In this document: positions 7,883-36,779 of the stretch, in pieces | Layout of the letters: every line of letters begins with the position of its first letter | Position numbering within the stretch: the first letter of the stretch is position 1 | Assembly (NCBI RefSeq): GCF_013122565.1 | Contig: NZ_CP053258.1 | DNA: 64,000 nucleotides | Source of the DNA: Escherichia coli | GTDB lineage: Bacteria > Pseudomonadota > Gammaproteobacteria > Enterobacterales > Enterobacteriaceae | Strand: one strand, 5' to 3' | Made by a program: the position numbers and the translations under genes | The notes under the pieces: generated by a model | Databases searched by the model: none | What the model saw: the letters and a program-made list of their open reading frames with translations, nothing else | Told to the model about the DNA's origin: nothing

Positions 7883-7965
7883 CACACGTCATTGATTAAG
7901 ATCACCACGCGTTACCTGGGTGGTCTTAATCTGTTTATCTCTTTTTCTTTCAAGATATAAATGCA

Positions 7966-9636
7966 ATGGATAATGCAGAACTCGCCATTGGTATCGATCT
8001 CGGTACTACCAATAGTTTAATTGCCGTCTGGAAAGACGGTGCCGCGCAATTAATTCCAAATAAGTTCGGTGAATATTTAACACCATCCATAATTAGCATG
8101 GATGAAAATAATCATATTTTAGTCGGAAAACCGGCTGTATCACGGCGTACTTCGCATCCGGATAAAACGGCAGCGTTATTTAAACGTGCAATGGGCAGTA
8201 ATACCAACTGGCGGTTAGGCAGCGACACATTTAACGCGCCAGAACTGTCCTCTTTGGTATTACGCTCATTAAAAGAAGATGCCGAAGAATTTCTGCAACG
8301 TCCAATTAAAGATGTGGTGATCTCCGTTCCGGCTTATTTCAGCGATGAACAACGCAAGCATACCCGTTTAGCAGCGGAGTTAGCCGGGTTAAATGCGGTA
8401 CGCTTAATTAATGAACCCACAGCAGCTGCAATGGCGTATGGCCTGCATACCCAACAAAATACCCGTTCGCTGGTGTTTGATCTCGGTGGCGGCACGTTTG
8501 ACGTTACGGTGCTTGAGTACGCCACGCCGGTGATTGAAGTTCACGCCTCCGCTGGCGACAACTTTCTTGGTGGCGAAGATTTTACCCATATGCTGGTCGA
8601 TGACGTTTTAAAGCGCGCGGATGTCGCCAGGAACACGCTTAACGAGAGTGAACTGGCAGCCTTGTACGCCTGCGTAGAAGCGGCAAAATGTAGTAATCAA
8701 TCGCCAATGCACATTCGCTGGCAGTACCAGGATGAAACGCGGGAGTGCGAATTTTACGAGAACGAACTGGAAGATTTGTGGTTGCCGCTGCTCAATCGCT
8801 TGCGAGTGCCGATTGAACAGGCGTTGCGCGATGCGCGTCTGAAGCCGAGTCAAATCGACAGTCTGGTGCTGGTTGGCGGCGCGTCACAAATGCCGCTGGT
8901 GCAGCGAATCGCCGTGCGTCTGTTTGGCAAATTACCGTATCAAAGTTACGATCCGAGCACCATTGTCGCGCTGGGCGCAGCAATCCAGGCCGCCTGCCGC
9001 TTACGCAGTGAAGATATTGAAGAAGTGATCCTCACTGATATTTGCCCTTACTCGTTGGGTGTTGAAGTTAACCGTCAGGGCGTATCCGGCATTTTCTCGC
9101 CGATTATTGAACGAAACACCACAGTACCGGTGTCGCGTGTAGAAACGTACTCGACCATGCACCCGGAGCAGGATTCAATTACGGTTAACGTCTATCAGGG
9201 AGAAAACCACAAAGTTAAAAATAACATTCTGGTGGAATCCTTCGATGTGCCGTTGAAGAAAACCGGGGCTTATCAGTCGATTGATATTCGTTTTAGTTAT
9301 GATATCAACGGCTTGCTTGAAGTTGACGTACTTCTGGAAGACGGCAGCGTTAAGTCCAGAGTCATTAATCATAGCCCGGTAACATTGAGCGCGCAGCAGA
9401 TCGAAGAGAGTCGGACGCGGTTATCCGCATTGAAAATTTATCCGCGCGATATGCTCATCAATCGCACCTTTAAAGCCAAACTGGAAGAGTTGTGGGCGCG
9501 AGCGCTGGGTGACGAGCGAGAAGAGATTGGCCGGGTGATCACCGATTTTGATGCGGCGTTGCAGTCAAACGATATGGCCCGCGTCGATGAGGTCAGGCGG
9601 CGGGCGAGCGATTATTTAGCCATTGAGATCCCATAA
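7966..9636 (+). CDS. hscC: Hsp70-family chaperone HscC, 556 aa
   Basis: Hsp70 signatures IDLGTTNS and DLGGGTFD in translation; shorter than DnaK; AT-rich codon usage. Confidence 0.9.
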   Translation: MDNAELAIGIDLGTTNSLIAVWKDGAAQLIPNKFGEYLTPSIISMDENNHILVGKPAVSRRTSHPDKTAALFKRAMGSNTNWRLGSDTFNAPELSSLVLRSLKEDAEEFLQRPIKDVVISVPAYFSDEQRKHTRLAAELAGLNAVRLINEPTAAAMAYGLHTQQNTRSLVFDLGGGTFDVTVLEYATPVIEVHASAGDNFLGGEDFTHMLVDDVLKRADVARNTLNESELAALYACVEAAKCSNQSPMHIRWQYQDETRECEFYENELEDLWLPLLNRLRVPIEQALRDARLKPSQIDSLVLVGGASQMPLVQRIAVRLFGKLPYQSYDPSTIVALGAAIQAACRLRSEDIEEVILTDICPYSLGVEVNRQGVSGIFSPIIERNTTVPVSRVETYSTMHPEQDSITVNVYQGENHKVKNNILVESFDVPLKKTGAYQSIDIRFSYDINGLLEVDVLLEDGSVKSRVINHSPVTLSAQQIEESRTRLSALKIYPRDMLINRTFKAKLEELWARALGDEREEIGRVITDFDAALQSNDMARVDEVRRRASDYLAIEIP

Positions 9637-9694: not shown

Positions 9695-11146
9695 TCAACT
9701 AAACAACATCGCGATTTTGCCGAGAGCATAACCTATCACCAGCACCGTTAAACTGATTTTGATAATGCCGGTAATGCTCTGTGGTTTTTCATCCTCATCA
9801 TTTTTTTCTTCATGGTTTTCAGGTGTTGGCTCATCGACATCTTCATCCTCCGGCTCGAGTTTCACTTTCGTCAACAGCATCCGGGTGATGATGGCCTCTA
9901 ATGGATGAGCATCTCCACCTTCCAGCCTTGTATTAAGACGGGCCAGCATCTCTTGTTTCGGAAACGCTTCAAGTACTACCTGTTCCGCTACCCGATACAA
10001 ATCCAGTAACGGTGAATCTTGCTCTGTCTCGCTACCGACTCTCGATTTCCACCACGCCCATGCTTTGCGCTTGAAAAATAACGATTCAATAAACGATTGA
10101 CCTAACGGCGATAATTTTCCGCTATGTAAAATTTCCGCCCATAACAGCCGCGTCCGGGCGCTCTCACCAGGAACATATTTCAACGGTTTACCTTGCACAT
10201 CAACCATGCTCTGCGCTTCGATAACCATCACTAACAGCGCGAAATAATCCGGGCAATGTTGTGCGCTCCACTGCAACAACAAATTATCGGCTTGTGTAGA
10301 TGGGTAACTCTCCCGGTATGCGCAGAGATCGGCAAGCAGGCTTTCCCCCTCGCCGCAGTACAAACGTTGTGCACACTGGTAATACCGGGCATCTTCGCTT
10401 TCTGGTTCTTCCATTTGCCACTGTTGGGCAACAGGAATGAGTTCCGCCATACCTGTTTGCACCGAGCTGTACCAGCGCAACAGTTTGCGATGTAACTTTG
10501 CATCATCAGGAATGAACCACGGACCTTCCATCGCCAAAAACGCAGTGACATAGTCAGGATGGTAACGGCAGCAACGTTCCAGCGCGAAGTAATACTCAAC
10601 AGTCTGGTTCTGCAACGCAACAGGATATTCCAGAAGGCTAAGGAAATCGAAACAATCACCAGCCTGAATGGCCTCAAGAAAAGCCTCCCTTTCTTCCTCA
10701 TCCATTCCTTCGCTGTCATTAAACGAATGCCAGTTCAAACGCTCTGCCAGCAAAGAAGCACAATTTAATGAAAGATATCGCGCTTCTATAGCGATTGCAC
10801 ACAGCGGCCAGCGTAATTGATCGACATCCTCCATGTTCCAGGTATTTAATTGCTGAATAAATTTCTGCCAGGCGGAGGGCTGAAAACGATCACTTTCTGA
10901 ATCCAGTAATGCCCTGAATGCACATAGTATTTCATGTTCAGCGGCAGCATCTTTTTCTTCATCATCTGCTTCCTCGACAGGATTTACCGCCAATCGCAAG
11001 GCCTCTTCATAGGCCTGGCGTAATGCTTTAAACCCCTGCGGATCGGTTTCGGGATGACACAACGGTAAGCGAGCAAGATAAGCCTGGCGGATAATGTCTA
11101 TTTGCGTCGTGCTTTCAATTTCGAGGATTTGCCAACATGTTTTCAT
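9695..11146 (-). CDS. djlC: J-domain co-chaperone DjlC (HscC partner), 483 aa, C-terminal membrane anchor
   Basis: N-terminal J-like domain (…[18 protein letters not shown]…); hydrophobic C-terminal tail; overlaps ybeU stop by 4 nt. Confidence 0.85.
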
Positions 11147-11850
11147 AGGTCGCTCACATCCTTAAGCGTTACCGGGCATTCAGGCTGGACAGTCAATGGC
11201 TGCCAGGGAAGCGTGGCATAGAAACGATCGCTTCCCGCTGCCAGCTCTTCGAACATCCGACTCCCGGCGCTATCGTATTTGTACAGGGTTAGCGCCTCGC
11301 GTAACGAAGCGTTGTCTTCGCATTGAGAAGATTGCCAGTAGAGACGCCCTAGTGAATAGGCAGAAAAATAGTGCATCCAGCTGTGATAGTAATGGTGTGC
11401 TCGGACGTAGACGCGCGATTGCAGCCATAAACTCTCGTCTTCCGTCAGCCACTTGTTGAGCACACCGACCCGTGACAGAAACCCCATTCGAACATAATCC
11501 CAGGCTTTGATTCCACCTTCTCCACAGCACATAGCGGTTTGGGCAACGAATTGGGTATAAATCAACCCTCTCTCCGAGCCACCAGCAATTAATGCTTTCC
11601 ACTCTTCAGGGGAAGAGCGATGCCATGTCAGATATAAGCCAGCTAAATCATTAGCATGACCATCATCAGTCATCTGATAAATAGTCTGAATTAAATCATC
11701 ACGATTATTTATTCCCCAGGATGATGAGAGATCGAATTCTTTTATCCCAGTATACATTTTCGGCGAGTCATGCGCGGGTTTGCAACCCTGATTAAGTATT
11801 TCCATTGGCGCAGAAAGCGCAAAAAGAAGATATTGTTCTTCCTTATTCAT
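11143..11850 (-). CDS. ybeU: DUF1266-family protein YbeU, 235 aa
   Basis: ORF 11143..11850; paralogous to ybeR in this window; translationally coupled to djlC. Confidence 0.85.
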
Positions 11851-11951
11851 TTGTTAATAATCCCTTAAGTGCATTAACTGACTACTTTTTTATTATTGAT
11901 GAGTATAAACTTGACGCTTTCAAAATAAAAAGAAAATCGAATCATTCACAG

Positions 11952-12506
11952 ATGAATAAAAAATTAATGTATATATTCGCAATATTTATAGTTGCAGCAA
12001 TTACCTGTATTAGCCAACCCAAGAAAACGACGTTGCGTGATAAAGCCATGGCGAATTATGCCTTTGATTATTTAAGCTCACCAGGCAGTCTTCCATTCAC
12101 CACGGCAGCCACGGAGCTTTCCGCGATTCATGGTCACTCAACGTCGCAATATCGCCTTGGCGAATTTTATCTTCATGGTAGCGACGGGAAACCACTGGAT
12201 TATACACAGGCGAGATACTGGTATGAGCAATCAGCAGAACAGGAAAATCCACGCGCGCAAAGTAAACTGGGGTGGATCTACCTCAAAGGTCTGGGGGTCA
12301 AACCCGACACCCGTAAAGCAATTCTCTGGTATAAGGAAGCAGCTGAACAAGGGTATGCTCATGCTCAATATACTTTAGGTTTGATCTACAGAAATGGCTC
12401 AGGTATTAATGTTAACCATTATGAATCTCAAAAATGGTTAAAACTGGCCGCCAAACAACATTACAAAAATGCGGAAAGATTACTTGCCGGGCTTCCCGCA
12501 CATTAA
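11952..12506 (+). CDS. ybeT: Sel1-repeat protein YbeT, 184 aa
   Basis: Internal ATG at 11952 (MNKKLMYIF..., signal/TM-like N-terminus); Sel1-type repeats; longer ORF from 11805 rejected. Confidence 0.75.
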
Positions 12507-33811: not shown

Positions 33812-33840
33812 AAAAAAAACCCGCTGATTAAGCGGGTTTT
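33812..33840. terminator. Bidirectional intrinsic terminator between convergent crcB and cspE
   Basis: A8-CCCGCT-GATTA-AGCGGG-T4; reads as hairpin plus T-run on both strands. Confidence 0.7.
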
Positions 33841-33859
33841 GAATTCTTGCTGACGTATC

Positions 33860-34069
33860 TTACAGAGCGATTACGTTTGCAGCAGAAGGGCCTTTGGCAC
33901 CGTTAGTGATTTCGAACTCTACACGCTGACCTTCAGCAAGAGTTTTAAAACCATTAGTCTGGATTGCAGAGAAGTGTACGAACACGTCTTTGCTGCCGTC
34001 TTCCGGAGTAATGAAACCGAATCCTTTGGACTCATTAAACCACTTAACGTTACCTTTAATCTTAGACAT
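33860..34069 (-). CDS. cspE: Cold-shock-domain protein CspE, 69 aa
   Basis: Start at internal ATG ([20 protein letters not shown]…); RNP1 motif GFGFI. Confidence 0.95.
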
Positions 34070-34243
34070 CAAAATTACCTTTACATGAAAAATAGACACA
34101 AATGCTGTGTCGGTTACCAGTACACCAATTGTGGTACGCTTTGTCCAGTGCAACTTTACTAAAAAGTGATAAAAGTCGCGTTATTTTTGATGTTAATTAT
34201 TTTACTCATTGATTTTAAAGAGTTTACTAAAATTTCATTTGTC

Positions 34244-34804
34244 TCAAAACTGAAAGCGCATCCAGGCAAAGTACACATTGCCATTGTTGTAGGTACCCGG
34301 AATGTAGGTCATCTGAAAAGTCACTGGACCATAACCCACGGAGGCCAATGGCAGTAGAACCGGGAGAGGGATGTAATTCCAGTTATCGCGCGCCGTTACG
34401 CCGGCGGTGAATCCCAGACCTAAATGAAAATTTTCATCCGCCAGCGGTCGCCAGGTACTTTCCCATCCGTATCCGGCAATCGGTTCCCATTTGTTCCACG
34501 AGTCCTTAAATGCCATGGCATACAGGCCATGCCAGTTTCCTTTTTCATCCCAACGCGACTGACCAAAACCGCCACCCCACGGTCGCTCGTTATAGCGATC
34601 GGTTTTTTCTTTGTCGTAAGCGAAACGTGCATGCCAGGTGATGGCAGGAATATATAAATCATAATGTTCAGGCTGTTGCCAGGTTTGTGCAATATTTTCT
34701 CTAAACGTTGTCATCCACTCATCTGCGTTAGCAAAAACTTTACCAACGCTGATTAACTGAATAAAAACAAAGGAAAATATAGCGACATATTTACTCACGT
34801 TCAT
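34244..34804 (-). CDS. pagP: Lipid A palmitoyltransferase PagP, 186 aa
   Basis: Start at internal ATG ([14 protein letters not shown]…); signal peptide plus beta-barrel-like sequence. Confidence 0.9.
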
Positions 34805-35290
34805 TTGTGACCATAAAACATTTATCAAAAATCTACTACTAGCATAGCAAAGCTACAATTAACATAACCTTAATAGCTCCAACATAAAGAATAATCTGAA
34901 TAGCTGCTCTATTTATTTCCGCTTGTTTAAGTTAAATATTTCCGCGCATCGATTTAAAATGATACATCGTTTTCTGCGATGGGAATAGTCATAAAAGAAA
35001 AAGCAAGTTATTACTGATAACAAAATGCAATCAAGAAAAAAATGACTTATTTTTTAATAAGATACAAAAAATTATCTTAACAAAGAATATATTATATATC
35101 GTCAACCCACGCCCATTATAGATTATTTTTTGAGCACACAACCGCAGCTAACACCATTGCAATTAACAAATTTGCATCAATCTACCATCAATTTACACAC
35201 ATTATTATGTGATAATTGCCAACTGTTAAATATGCGTTTTGTTATCTATGTATAAAAACAGCAACTTCAATGTCTTAATGGCAGTTTTTC

Positions 35291-35304
35291 TTGATTTTAA
35301 TCAG
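35291..35304 (+). promoter_or_regulatory. FNR-like site TTGAT-N4-ATCAG upstream of dcuC
   Basis: One mismatch to TTGAT-N4-ATCAA; about 95 nt upstream of dcuC ATG. Confidence 0.45.
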
Positions 35305-35393
35305 CATTCACCGCCAATTTATTGGGCATATTTTTTCCTTAAGTTTTAGGAATTTTTTATTATTTACTTTGGGGCCTGGAGACAGGAAAAATT

Positions 35394-36779
35394 ATGCTGA
35401 CATTCATTGAACTCCTTATTGGGGTTGTGGTTATTGTGGGTGTAGCTCGCTACATCATTAAAGGGTATTCCGCCACTGGTGTGTTATTTGTCGGTGGCCT
35501 GTTATTGCTGATTATCAGTGCCATTATGGGGCACAAAGTGTTACCGTCCAGCCAGGCTTCAACAGGCTACAGCGCCACGGATATCGTTGAATACGTTAAA
35601 ATATTGCTAATGAGCCGCGGCGGCGACCTCGGCATGATGATTATGATGCTGTGTGGCTTTGCCGCTTACATGACCCATATCGGCGCGAATGATATGGTGG
35701 TCAAGCTGGCGTCAAAACCATTGCAGTATATTAACTCCCCTTACCTGCTGATGATTGCCGCCTATTTTGTTGCCTGTCTGATGTCTTTGGCCGTCTCTTC
35801 CGCAACCGGTCTGGGCGTTTTGCTGATGGCTACTCTGTTTCCGGTGATGGTAAACGTTGGTATCAGTCGTGGCGCAGCAGCTGCCATTTGTGCCTCCCCG
35901 GCGGCGATTATTCTCGCACCGACTTCAGGGGATGTGGTGCTGGCGGCACAGGCTTCCGAAATGTCGCTGATTGACTTCGCCTTCAAAACGACGCTGCCTA
36001 TCTCAATTGCTGCAATTATCGGCATGGCGATCGCCCACTTCTTCTGGCAACGTTATCTGGATAAAAAAGAGCACATTTCTCATGAAATGTTAGATGTCAG
36101 TGAAATCACCACCACTGCTCCTGCGTTTTATGCCATTTTGCCGTTCACGCCGATCATCGGTGTACTGATTTTTGACGGTAAATGGGGTCCGCAATTACAC
36201 ATCATCACTATTCTGGTGATTTGTATGCTGATTGCCTCCATTCTGGAGTTTCTCCGCAGCTTTAATACCCAGAAAGTTTTCTCTGGTCTGGAAGTGGCTT
36301 ATCGCGGGATGGCAGATGCGTTTGCTAACGTGGTGATGCTGCTGGTTGCCGCTGGGGTATTCGCTCAGGGGCTTAGCACCATCGGCTTTATTCAAAGTCT
36401 GATTTCTATCGCTACCTCGTTTGGTTCGGCGAGTATCATCCTGATGCTGGTATTGGTGATTCTGACAATGCTGGCGGCAGTCACGACCGGTTCAGGCAAT
36501 GCGCCGTTTTATGCGTTTGTTGAGATGATCCCGAAACTGGCGCACTCTTCCGGCATTAACCCGGCGTATTTGACTATCCCGATGCTGCAGGCGTCAAACC
36601 TGGGCCGTACCCTTTCGCCCGTTTCTGGCGTAGTCGTTGCGGTTGCCGGGATGGCGAAAATCTCACCATTTGAAGTCGTAAAACGCACCTCGGTGCCGGT
36701 GCTTGTTGGGCTGGTGATTGTTATCGTTGCTACAGAGCTGATGGTGCCAGGAACGGCAGCAGCGGTCACAGGCAAGTAA
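35394..36779 (+). CDS. dcuC: Anaerobic C4-dicarboxylate transporter DcuC, 461 aa
   Basis: Polytopic membrane protein; recognised sequence. Confidence 0.9.
   Translation: MLTFIELLIGVVVIVGVARYIIKGYSATGVLFVGGLLLLIISAIMGHKVLPSSQASTGYSATDIVEYVKILLMSRGGDLGMMIMMLCGFAAYMTHIGANDMVVKLASKPLQYINSPYLLMIAAYFVACLMSLAVSSATGLGVLLMATLFPVMVNVGISRGAAAAICASPAAIILAPTSGDVVLAAQASEMSLIDFAFKTTLPISIAAIIGMAIAHFFWQRYLDKKEHISHEMLDVSEITTTAPAFYAILPFTPIIGVLIFDGKWGPQLHIITILVICMLIASILEFLRSFNTQKVFSGLEVAYRGMADAFANVVMLLVAAGVFAQGLSTIGFIQSLISIATSFGSASIILMLVLVILTMLAAVTTGSGNAPFYAFVEMIPKLAHSSGINPAYLTIPMLQASNLGRTLSPVSGVVVAVAGMAKISPFEVVKRTSVPVLVGLVIVIVATELMVPGTAAAVTGK

Follow-up and report, generated by a model that had tools for sequence, protein, structure and literature searches.

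The FNR palindrome upstream of dcuC in an Escherichia coli strain corresponds to the documented K-12 site and is followed by a predicted class II core promoter

The closest described counterpart of the element studied here is the FNR site of the dcuC promoter in E. coli K-12, where FNR was mapped genome-wide by Myers et al. 2013 (PLoS Genet, PMC3688515). Table 1 of that study assigns an FNR ChIP-seq peak with its summit at 655,298 (U00096.2) and one FNR site to dcuC, which falls in Category 1, "directly activated by FNR," and carries a "+" in both the anaerobic sigma-70 and the expression columns. The available part of Table S6 places a predicted FNR site at U00096.2 655281, CTGATTAAAATCAA (PatSer, 12.38; ln p, -10.96), which lies under an FNR ChIP-seq peak and does not overlap enrichment for Fis, H-NS, or IHF (PMC3688515). 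By RNA-seq, dcuC was scored as "Activated" by FNR, with an aerobic/anaerobic expression ratio of 0.05, a ratio whose direction we took from the values given there for the sdh genes (PMC3688515). Myers et al. cite Zientz et al. 1999 (J Bacteriol 181:3716) for the earlier, and first, report of FNR regulation of dcuC, and they list no earlier evidence of FNR binding to dcuC (PMC3688515). In addition, a single-copy dcuC::lacZ fusion was induced anaerobically in an FNR-dependent manner (Oberto et al. 2009, PMC2634741), and FNR activation of dcuC is also stated at review level. FNR control of dcuC belongs to an established picture, in which DcuC is made anaerobically for C4-dicarboxylate exchange and succinate efflux.

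Two sets of related promoters provide further comparison. At class II FNR promoters (for example, dmsA, narG, nirB, and nrfA), a 14-bp FNR palindrome centered at -41.5 replaces the -35 hexamer, and 19 of 23 directly FNR-activated promoters with a known start have their site at -41.5 ± 4 (PMC3688515). For dcuC, the same study gives the position of the site as "TSS not in peak region." The dcuC site shares the class II palindrome but is weaker than the nirB or narK sites (PatSer, 12.38 versus 17.06 in the available part of the site table; PMC3688515). The dcuB promoter likewise drives an FNR-activated gene for an anaerobic C4-dicarboxylate carrier. Its top FNR site, however, is at -132.5, whereas dcuC has a single proximal site, and dcuB is also DcuSR dependent and nitrate repressed through NarXL.

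We analyzed a 64,000-nt stretch of an E. coli genome (contig NZ_CP053258.1), referred to here as the window, in which the dcuC locus contains the following features.

34244 to 34804, minus strand: pagP, the divergent neighbor that shares the spacer (from annotation; given as context only)
35291 to 35304, no strand assigned: FNR binding site TTGAT-TTTA-ATCAG, matching 9 of 10 consensus bases and predicted to occupy -48 to -35 of the dcuC promoter
35384 to 35387, plus strand: Shine-Dalgarno sequence AGGA, read from the sequence, 6 nt ahead of the dcuC ATG
35394 to 36779, plus strand: dcuC coding sequence (open reading frame, 461 amino acids), the regulated gene, annotated as anaerobic C4-dicarboxylate transporter DcuC

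The order of genes (tatE, ybeM [deaminated glutathione amidase], crcB, cspE, pagP, divergent dcuC, dpiA, and dpiB) matches that of annotated E. coli genomes. A 7.6-kb stretch of the window is 98.1% identical to K-12 MG1655, and DcuC is identical to b0621 of K-12 at 462 of 462 positions, stop included. Ahead of the dcuC ATG, the sequence ACAGG(G)GAAA recurs in most other genera. The original prediction described a 565-bp AT-rich divergent region shared with pagP. Its base composition and divergent arrangement hold, since the spacer has a G+C content of 29.4% (versus 50.5% for the window). Its length depends on the pagP start chosen: it comes to 589 bp (34805 to 35393) with the ATG at 34804 (MNVSKY...) that the K-12 and PGAP annotations use and to 565 bp only with the upstream TTG at 34828.

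The palindrome itself is the 14-mer TTGATTTTAATCAG on the plus strand, which differs at one base from the FNR consensus TTGATNNNNATCAA. Nine of the 10 specified bases agree with TTGAT-N4-ATCAA, and the mismatch is the last base, a G in place of A, just as had been claimed for an FNR-type palindrome with one mismatch. The claimed distance of about 95 nt from the dcuC start is also fair, as the center of the site (35297.5) is 96.5 nt upstream of the ATG (35394) and 89 nt separate its last base from the ATG. FNR sites are told apart from CRP sites by the first T of the half-site. The left half-site, TTGAT, has this T at the first position of its TTGA core (GTGA in CRP sites), and the right half-site core, TCAG, ends in a base that is nonconsensus for both FNR (TCAA) and CRP (TCAC). 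A scan of the whole dcuC-pagP spacer revealed no FNR match with fewer than three mismatches other than TTGATTTTAATCAG.

Alignment with K-12 showed that the 14-mer is identical in that strain, and CTGATTAAAATCAA is its reverse complement. The K-12 site spans 656,058 to 656,071 of NC_000913.3, where the dcuC ATG is at 655,968; subtraction of the 777-bp offset gives 655,281 to 655,294, in agreement with Table S6. The K-12 ChIP-seq summit at 655,298 is about 10 bp from the center of this site (655,287.5), and the PatSer score of 12.38 for the identical K-12 sequence passes the genome-wide threshold of Myers et al. 2013. The two strains have in common the 14-mer, the gene it precedes, its placement relative to the ATG, and the promoter sequence around it, and nothing differs in the element. 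The palindrome is therefore the already documented FNR site of the dcuC promoter, found in another E. coli strain, and both the observation and its interpretation were already known. For the identical K-12 sequence, the literature shows that FNR occupies the site in vivo and that anaerobic expression depends on FNR. The proposal that FNR induces a C4-dicarboxylate carrier anaerobically from this site is thus supported by the identity of DcuC and by the K-12 ChIP-seq, RNA-seq, and lacZ fusion results, and it has little significance beyond correct annotation. What we add is small, namely, a comparative placement of the core promoter (-10 element at 35327 to 35332, start at about 35339) that constitutes a specific prediction for the "TSS not in peak region" gap left by Myers et al.

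Conservation within the species differs along the spacer. Compared with 5,381 complete E. coli genomes, the spacer of the window is only 92 to 97% identical to that of most strains (best, 97.2%), with 4,903 genomes in the 90 to 95% identity band, making it unusually polymorphic. This ceiling of 97.2% raised the possibility that the window comes from an Escherichia species other than E. coli, a reading rejected on the strength of the 98.1% identity to K-12 across 7.6 kb and the identical DcuC. The differences lie upstream of the core promoter. In the K-12 alignment, they are concentrated mid-spacer, and the approximately 170 bp adjoining dcuC, palindrome included, is almost invariant. A 68-bp query comprising the site and the proposed -10 element was found at an identity of at least 95% in 5,376 of 5,426 complete E. 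coli genomes. The mid-spacer segment from 34950 to 35140 is highly polymorphic among E. coli strains, and the flanking genes are about 98 to 99% identical.

We also compared 80 dcuC loci (protein identity, 86 to 99%) from about 20 enterobacterial genera, among them Escherichia, Citrobacter, Salmonella, Enterobacter, Klebsiella, Raoultella, Lelliottia, Leclercia, Buttiauxella, Pluralibacter, Yokenella, Atlantibacter, Mangrovibacter, and Phytobacter. A related palindrome is present upstream of dcuC in all 80, in an ungapped alignment for which the site pattern itself served as the anchor and which draws on phylogenetically related loci. The left half-site is TTGAT in 78 loci, with one instance each of GTGAT and TTGAC. 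The right half-site is ATCAG in 59, GTCAG in 16, ATCAT in 4, and GTCAT in 1, so that [AG]TCA[GT] describes 80 of 80. The 4 nt between the half-sites, on the other hand, take 13 forms, and this combination is the pattern expected with selection on the half-sites and not on the spacer between them. In the information profile, near-maximal values are reached in two blocks only, TTTa-TTGAT....aTCAG-CA and TTcGGCAcATT; the approximately 16 nt separating these blocks and the DNA flanking them are barely conserved. The distance from the palindrome center to the dcuC ATG ranges from 61.5 to 334.5 nt (median, 100.5).

The second conserved block contains a candidate -10 element, from which we placed the dcuC core promoter as follows.

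35327 to 35332, plus strand: predicted -10 hexamer CATATT, matching TATAAT at 4 of 6 bases, including A2 and T6, and preceded by a conserved GG
35338 to 35342, plus strand: predicted dcuC transcription start, nominally 35339 (NC_000913.3 656,023, minus strand), 6 to 10 nt past the -10 hexamer

CATATT begins exactly 22 bp after the FNR site, and a CA-N-ATT hexamer is found exactly 22 bp 3' of the palindrome in 77 of the 80 loci. The exceptions are TACATT in one locus (Salmonella enterica subsp. arizonae) and a hexamer shifted one base toward the site, CACAAT, in two divergent loci; A2 and T6 of the hexamer are accordingly kept at the same offset in 78 of 80 and one base nearer the site in the remaining 2. 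At the position of a -35 hexamer with 17-bp spacing, GCATTC shares none of its six bases with TTGACA. The region combines a predicted -10 element, which would place A at -11 and T at -7, with a poor or absent -35 hexamer. The fixed 22-bp spacing points to class II geometry, with the site at -48 to -35, the hexamer at -12 to -7, and the site center at about -41.5 (± 2 to 3), the same center that a weak -10 element 22 bp downstream would predict by analogy with the known class II FNR promoters. Over the full predicted start range, the site center would fall between -40.5 and -44.5. The nominal +1 is a pyrimidine, and initiation at the nearest purines (A at 35341 and 35342) would move the site center to -43.5 or -44.5. 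A generic sigma-70 scan of the spacer returned no plus-strand promoter, which is expected for an activator-dependent promoter yet is not positive evidence for one. The accessible parts of the supplements of Ettwiller 2016, Federowicz 2014, Kim 2012, and Srikumar 2015 contain no mapped dcuC start.

Taken together, it is very probable that the palindrome serves [4Fe-4S]-FNR as the operator for anaerobic activation of the dcuC promoter in a class II arrangement, with the -10 element at CATATT and the start at about 35339. An FNR dimer would bind TTGAT-N4-ATCAG, and its site would stand in for the -35 hexamer, centered about 41.5 bp upstream of the start. FNR would then recruit sigma-70 RNA polymerase to the weak -10 element, and transcription from about 35339 would yield a leader of about 55 nt ahead of dcuC. 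The -10 element, the start site, and hence the class II mechanism are what we infer from family-wide conservation.

The alternative that survives best is that FNR binds the site but does not act as a class II activator there, the real dcuC start belonging to some other position, such as an FNR-independent promoter farther upstream, with FNR working in a class I or more distant manner or the site lying in a long leader. The entry "TSS not in peak region" is compatible with this, as is an anaerobically enriched sigma-70 peak about 455 bp from the FNR site, near pagP (PMC3688515). Genomic SELEX with RpoD holoenzyme (Shimada et al. 2014) also identified a "constitutive" promoter in the dcuC direction in the K-12 spacer, ATGACA-17-AATTAT, which, as read from the alignment, precedes the dcuC ATG by about 350 bp in K-12. 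The -10 element of that promoter, however, reads AAATGA in the window, and it belongs to the most polymorphic part of the spacer. Furthermore, an FNR site within the transcribed leader would repress dcuC, whereas FNR activates it, and the 22-bp spacing between the site and the -10 element is constant across genera despite leaders of 61 to 334 nt, which would otherwise be hard to explain. We therefore regard a start elsewhere as unlikely, and class II activation from the predicted core promoter as the preferred reading.

The sigma-70 peak near pagP bears on a second alternative, in which the site serves the divergent pagP gene, or both genes, and so explains the anaerobic rise in pagP expression and sigma-70 occupancy. 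This peak (U00096.2 655,742; Table S2) has a signal of 37 aerobically and 366 anaerobically, an approximately 10-fold rise, and is the only sigma-70 peak with a significant aerobic/anaerobic change that is labeled for this spacer (PMC3688515). It maps to about position 34843 of the window, a point that precedes the pagP ATG by approximately 39 bp and does not coincide with the proposed dcuC core promoter. Because the aerobic/anaerobic expression ratio of pagP (crcA) is 0.29 (PMC3688515), the peak probably reflects the pagP promoter, and its location at the pagP end means that the published polymerase signal is absent at the proposed dcuC core promoter. We found no mapped regulator site that explains the anaerobic gain in sigma-70 at this end. 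The expression ratio of pagP and the adjoining peak would both fit control of pagP by the palindrome. The center of the site, however, is separated from the pagP ATG by 493.5 bp and from the peak by about 455 bp, and the predicted -10 element that is conserved together with the site belongs to the dcuC strand. Moreover, in the rows listed of the FNR-dependent operon table, which is ordered by b number, b0621 is followed by b0763, and b0622 is absent (PMC3688515). Control of pagP from this site is thus very unlikely, and dcuC is better supported as its target.

It is more improbable still that the palindrome is recognized mainly by CRP, or by another regulator of the CRP/FNR family, and not by FNR. 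Such recognition could account for a right half-site whose TCAG core fits neither TCAA nor TCAC and for the CRP-like GTGAT left half-site in Salmonella enterica subsp. arizonae. Against it, 79 of 80 loci have TTGA[TC] as the left half-site, the site taken as a 16-mer is not within three mismatches of TGTGA-N6-TCACA, and the dcuC-pagP spacer contains no CRP-like site with fewer than three mismatches. In 1999, Zientz and colleagues reportedly saw no glucose repression of dcuC, which counts against CRP as well. Both FNR ChIP-seq occupancy and FNR-dependent expression are documented in K-12, and an fnr mutant that retains crp has already been reported to lose anaerobic induction.

The number of FNR-like matches is not by itself informative about the site. 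With at most one mismatch, the window contains 8 matches, 5 of them inside long open reading frames and 3 intergenic, versus 2.68 ± 1.85 in shuffled sequences, of which 2 of 100 reached 8; the chance expectation for the dcuC-pagP spacer is about 0.025 matches. Since 8 matches were found where 2.68 were expected, a single match is not significant alone, and what raises the dcuC site above chance is published in vivo binding and conservation, not match count. That the palindrome lacks function and resembles a short, degenerate consensus only by chance, in DNA that is AT-rich, the least likely of the readings, would sit well with this excess and with a good match at position 7892 (the hscC site) that is unbound in vivo in K-12, according to the available part of Table S6 (PMC3688515), but the published ChIP-seq and expression results on the identical K-12 sequence refute it, and conservation across about 20 genera contradicts it.

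Among the 80 loci, the last base of the FNR site is G in 75 and T in 5, and the consensus A does not occur. In this respect dcuC differs from consensus class II sites, as the base is never A in the 80 loci or in the window. From this and the fixed 22-bp spacing to the -10 element, we tentatively consider that the site may be kept suboptimal, so that dcuC would fire only at full FNR activity, or that the base might be constrained by RNA polymerase contact at the -35 position and not by contact with FNR; we hold these ideas to be unlikely.

Other regulators have been assigned to the spacer. Park et al. 2013 predicted an ArcA site of more than 15 bits in the dcuC/crcA spacer, where there was no ArcA ChIP signal, and SELEX work lists dcuC among the targets of ArcA and SdiA. 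H-NS binding was assigned to the dcuC-pagP spacer by genomic SELEX (Shimada et al. 2014). The sequence TGTTAA at position 35225 of the window is not present in K-12. On the plus strand at 34924 to 34940, about 125 bp upstream of the pagP ATG, we observed TGTTTA-AGTTA-AATATT. The first half of this element matches what we take to be the PhoP-box repeat, (T/G)GTTTA, and pagP is a PhoP-activated gene. A minus-strand sigma-70 match from 35229 to 35201 (TTAACA-17-AATAAT) was set aside, since one such site compares with 4.3 expected from shuffles and provides no evidence for a promoter. A terminator-like hairpin on the minus strand (34981 to 34965) was dropped because it is not kept in K-12. No Rfam family matched the spacer at an E value of ≤1.

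Two of the intergenic FNR-like matches elsewhere in the window were compared with the K-12 sites. At 7892 to 7905, TTGATTAAGATCAC lies 61 bp upstream of an open reading frame at 7966 to 9636 (plus strand) and is the reverse complement of the K-12 "hscC" site at 682677, GTGATCTTAATCAA, in the available part of Table S6 of Myers et al. 2013 (PMC3688515). There, the hscC site has a PatSer score of 14.56, above that of the dcuC site, is FNR-unbound in ChIP-seq, and overlaps H-NS enrichment (PMC3688515). At 11896 to 11909, TTGATGAGTATAAA is a one-mismatch match between divergent open reading frames at 11143 to 11850 (minus strand) and 11952 to 12506 (plus strand), and it was not found among the Table S6 sites listed in the available part of that table (PMC3688515). 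In addition, the cspE mRNA region (33812 to 34170, minus strand) matches the Rfam cspA thermoregulator RF01766 with 126 bits, versus a gathering score of 78. This match probably reflects the paralogy of cspE and cspA rather than a demonstrated thermosensor.

Several variants were observed among the compared loci. In Salmonella enterica subsp. arizonae (L043), the CRP-like GTGAT left half belongs to a site 103 to 90 nt upstream of the dcuC ATG, and the -10 element, TACATT, is nearer to consensus. The annotated dcuC of S. Typhimurium is only 1,254 nt long and, in the accessible part of Srikumar 2015, is barely expressed under the conditions of that study. A weakly conserved A-tract lies about 35 bp, and TTAAT or TTAGT about 14 bp, upstream of the FNR site at 35255 to 35290 of the window and in the equivalent segments of L004 to L083; these positions correspond to about -83 and -62 of the proposed promoter and might represent an UP-like element or an element for an architectural protein. 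Finally, Citrobacter amalonaticus S646 (L048:1160-1500) carries about 235 bp of extra DNA between the FNR/-10 block and the dcuC ATG, giving the center-to-ATG distance of 334.5 nt, and this insert (…TCATACTTCAAGTTGCTGGTGCGTTGGC…) resembles an enterobacterial intergenic repeat of the ERIC/IRU type.
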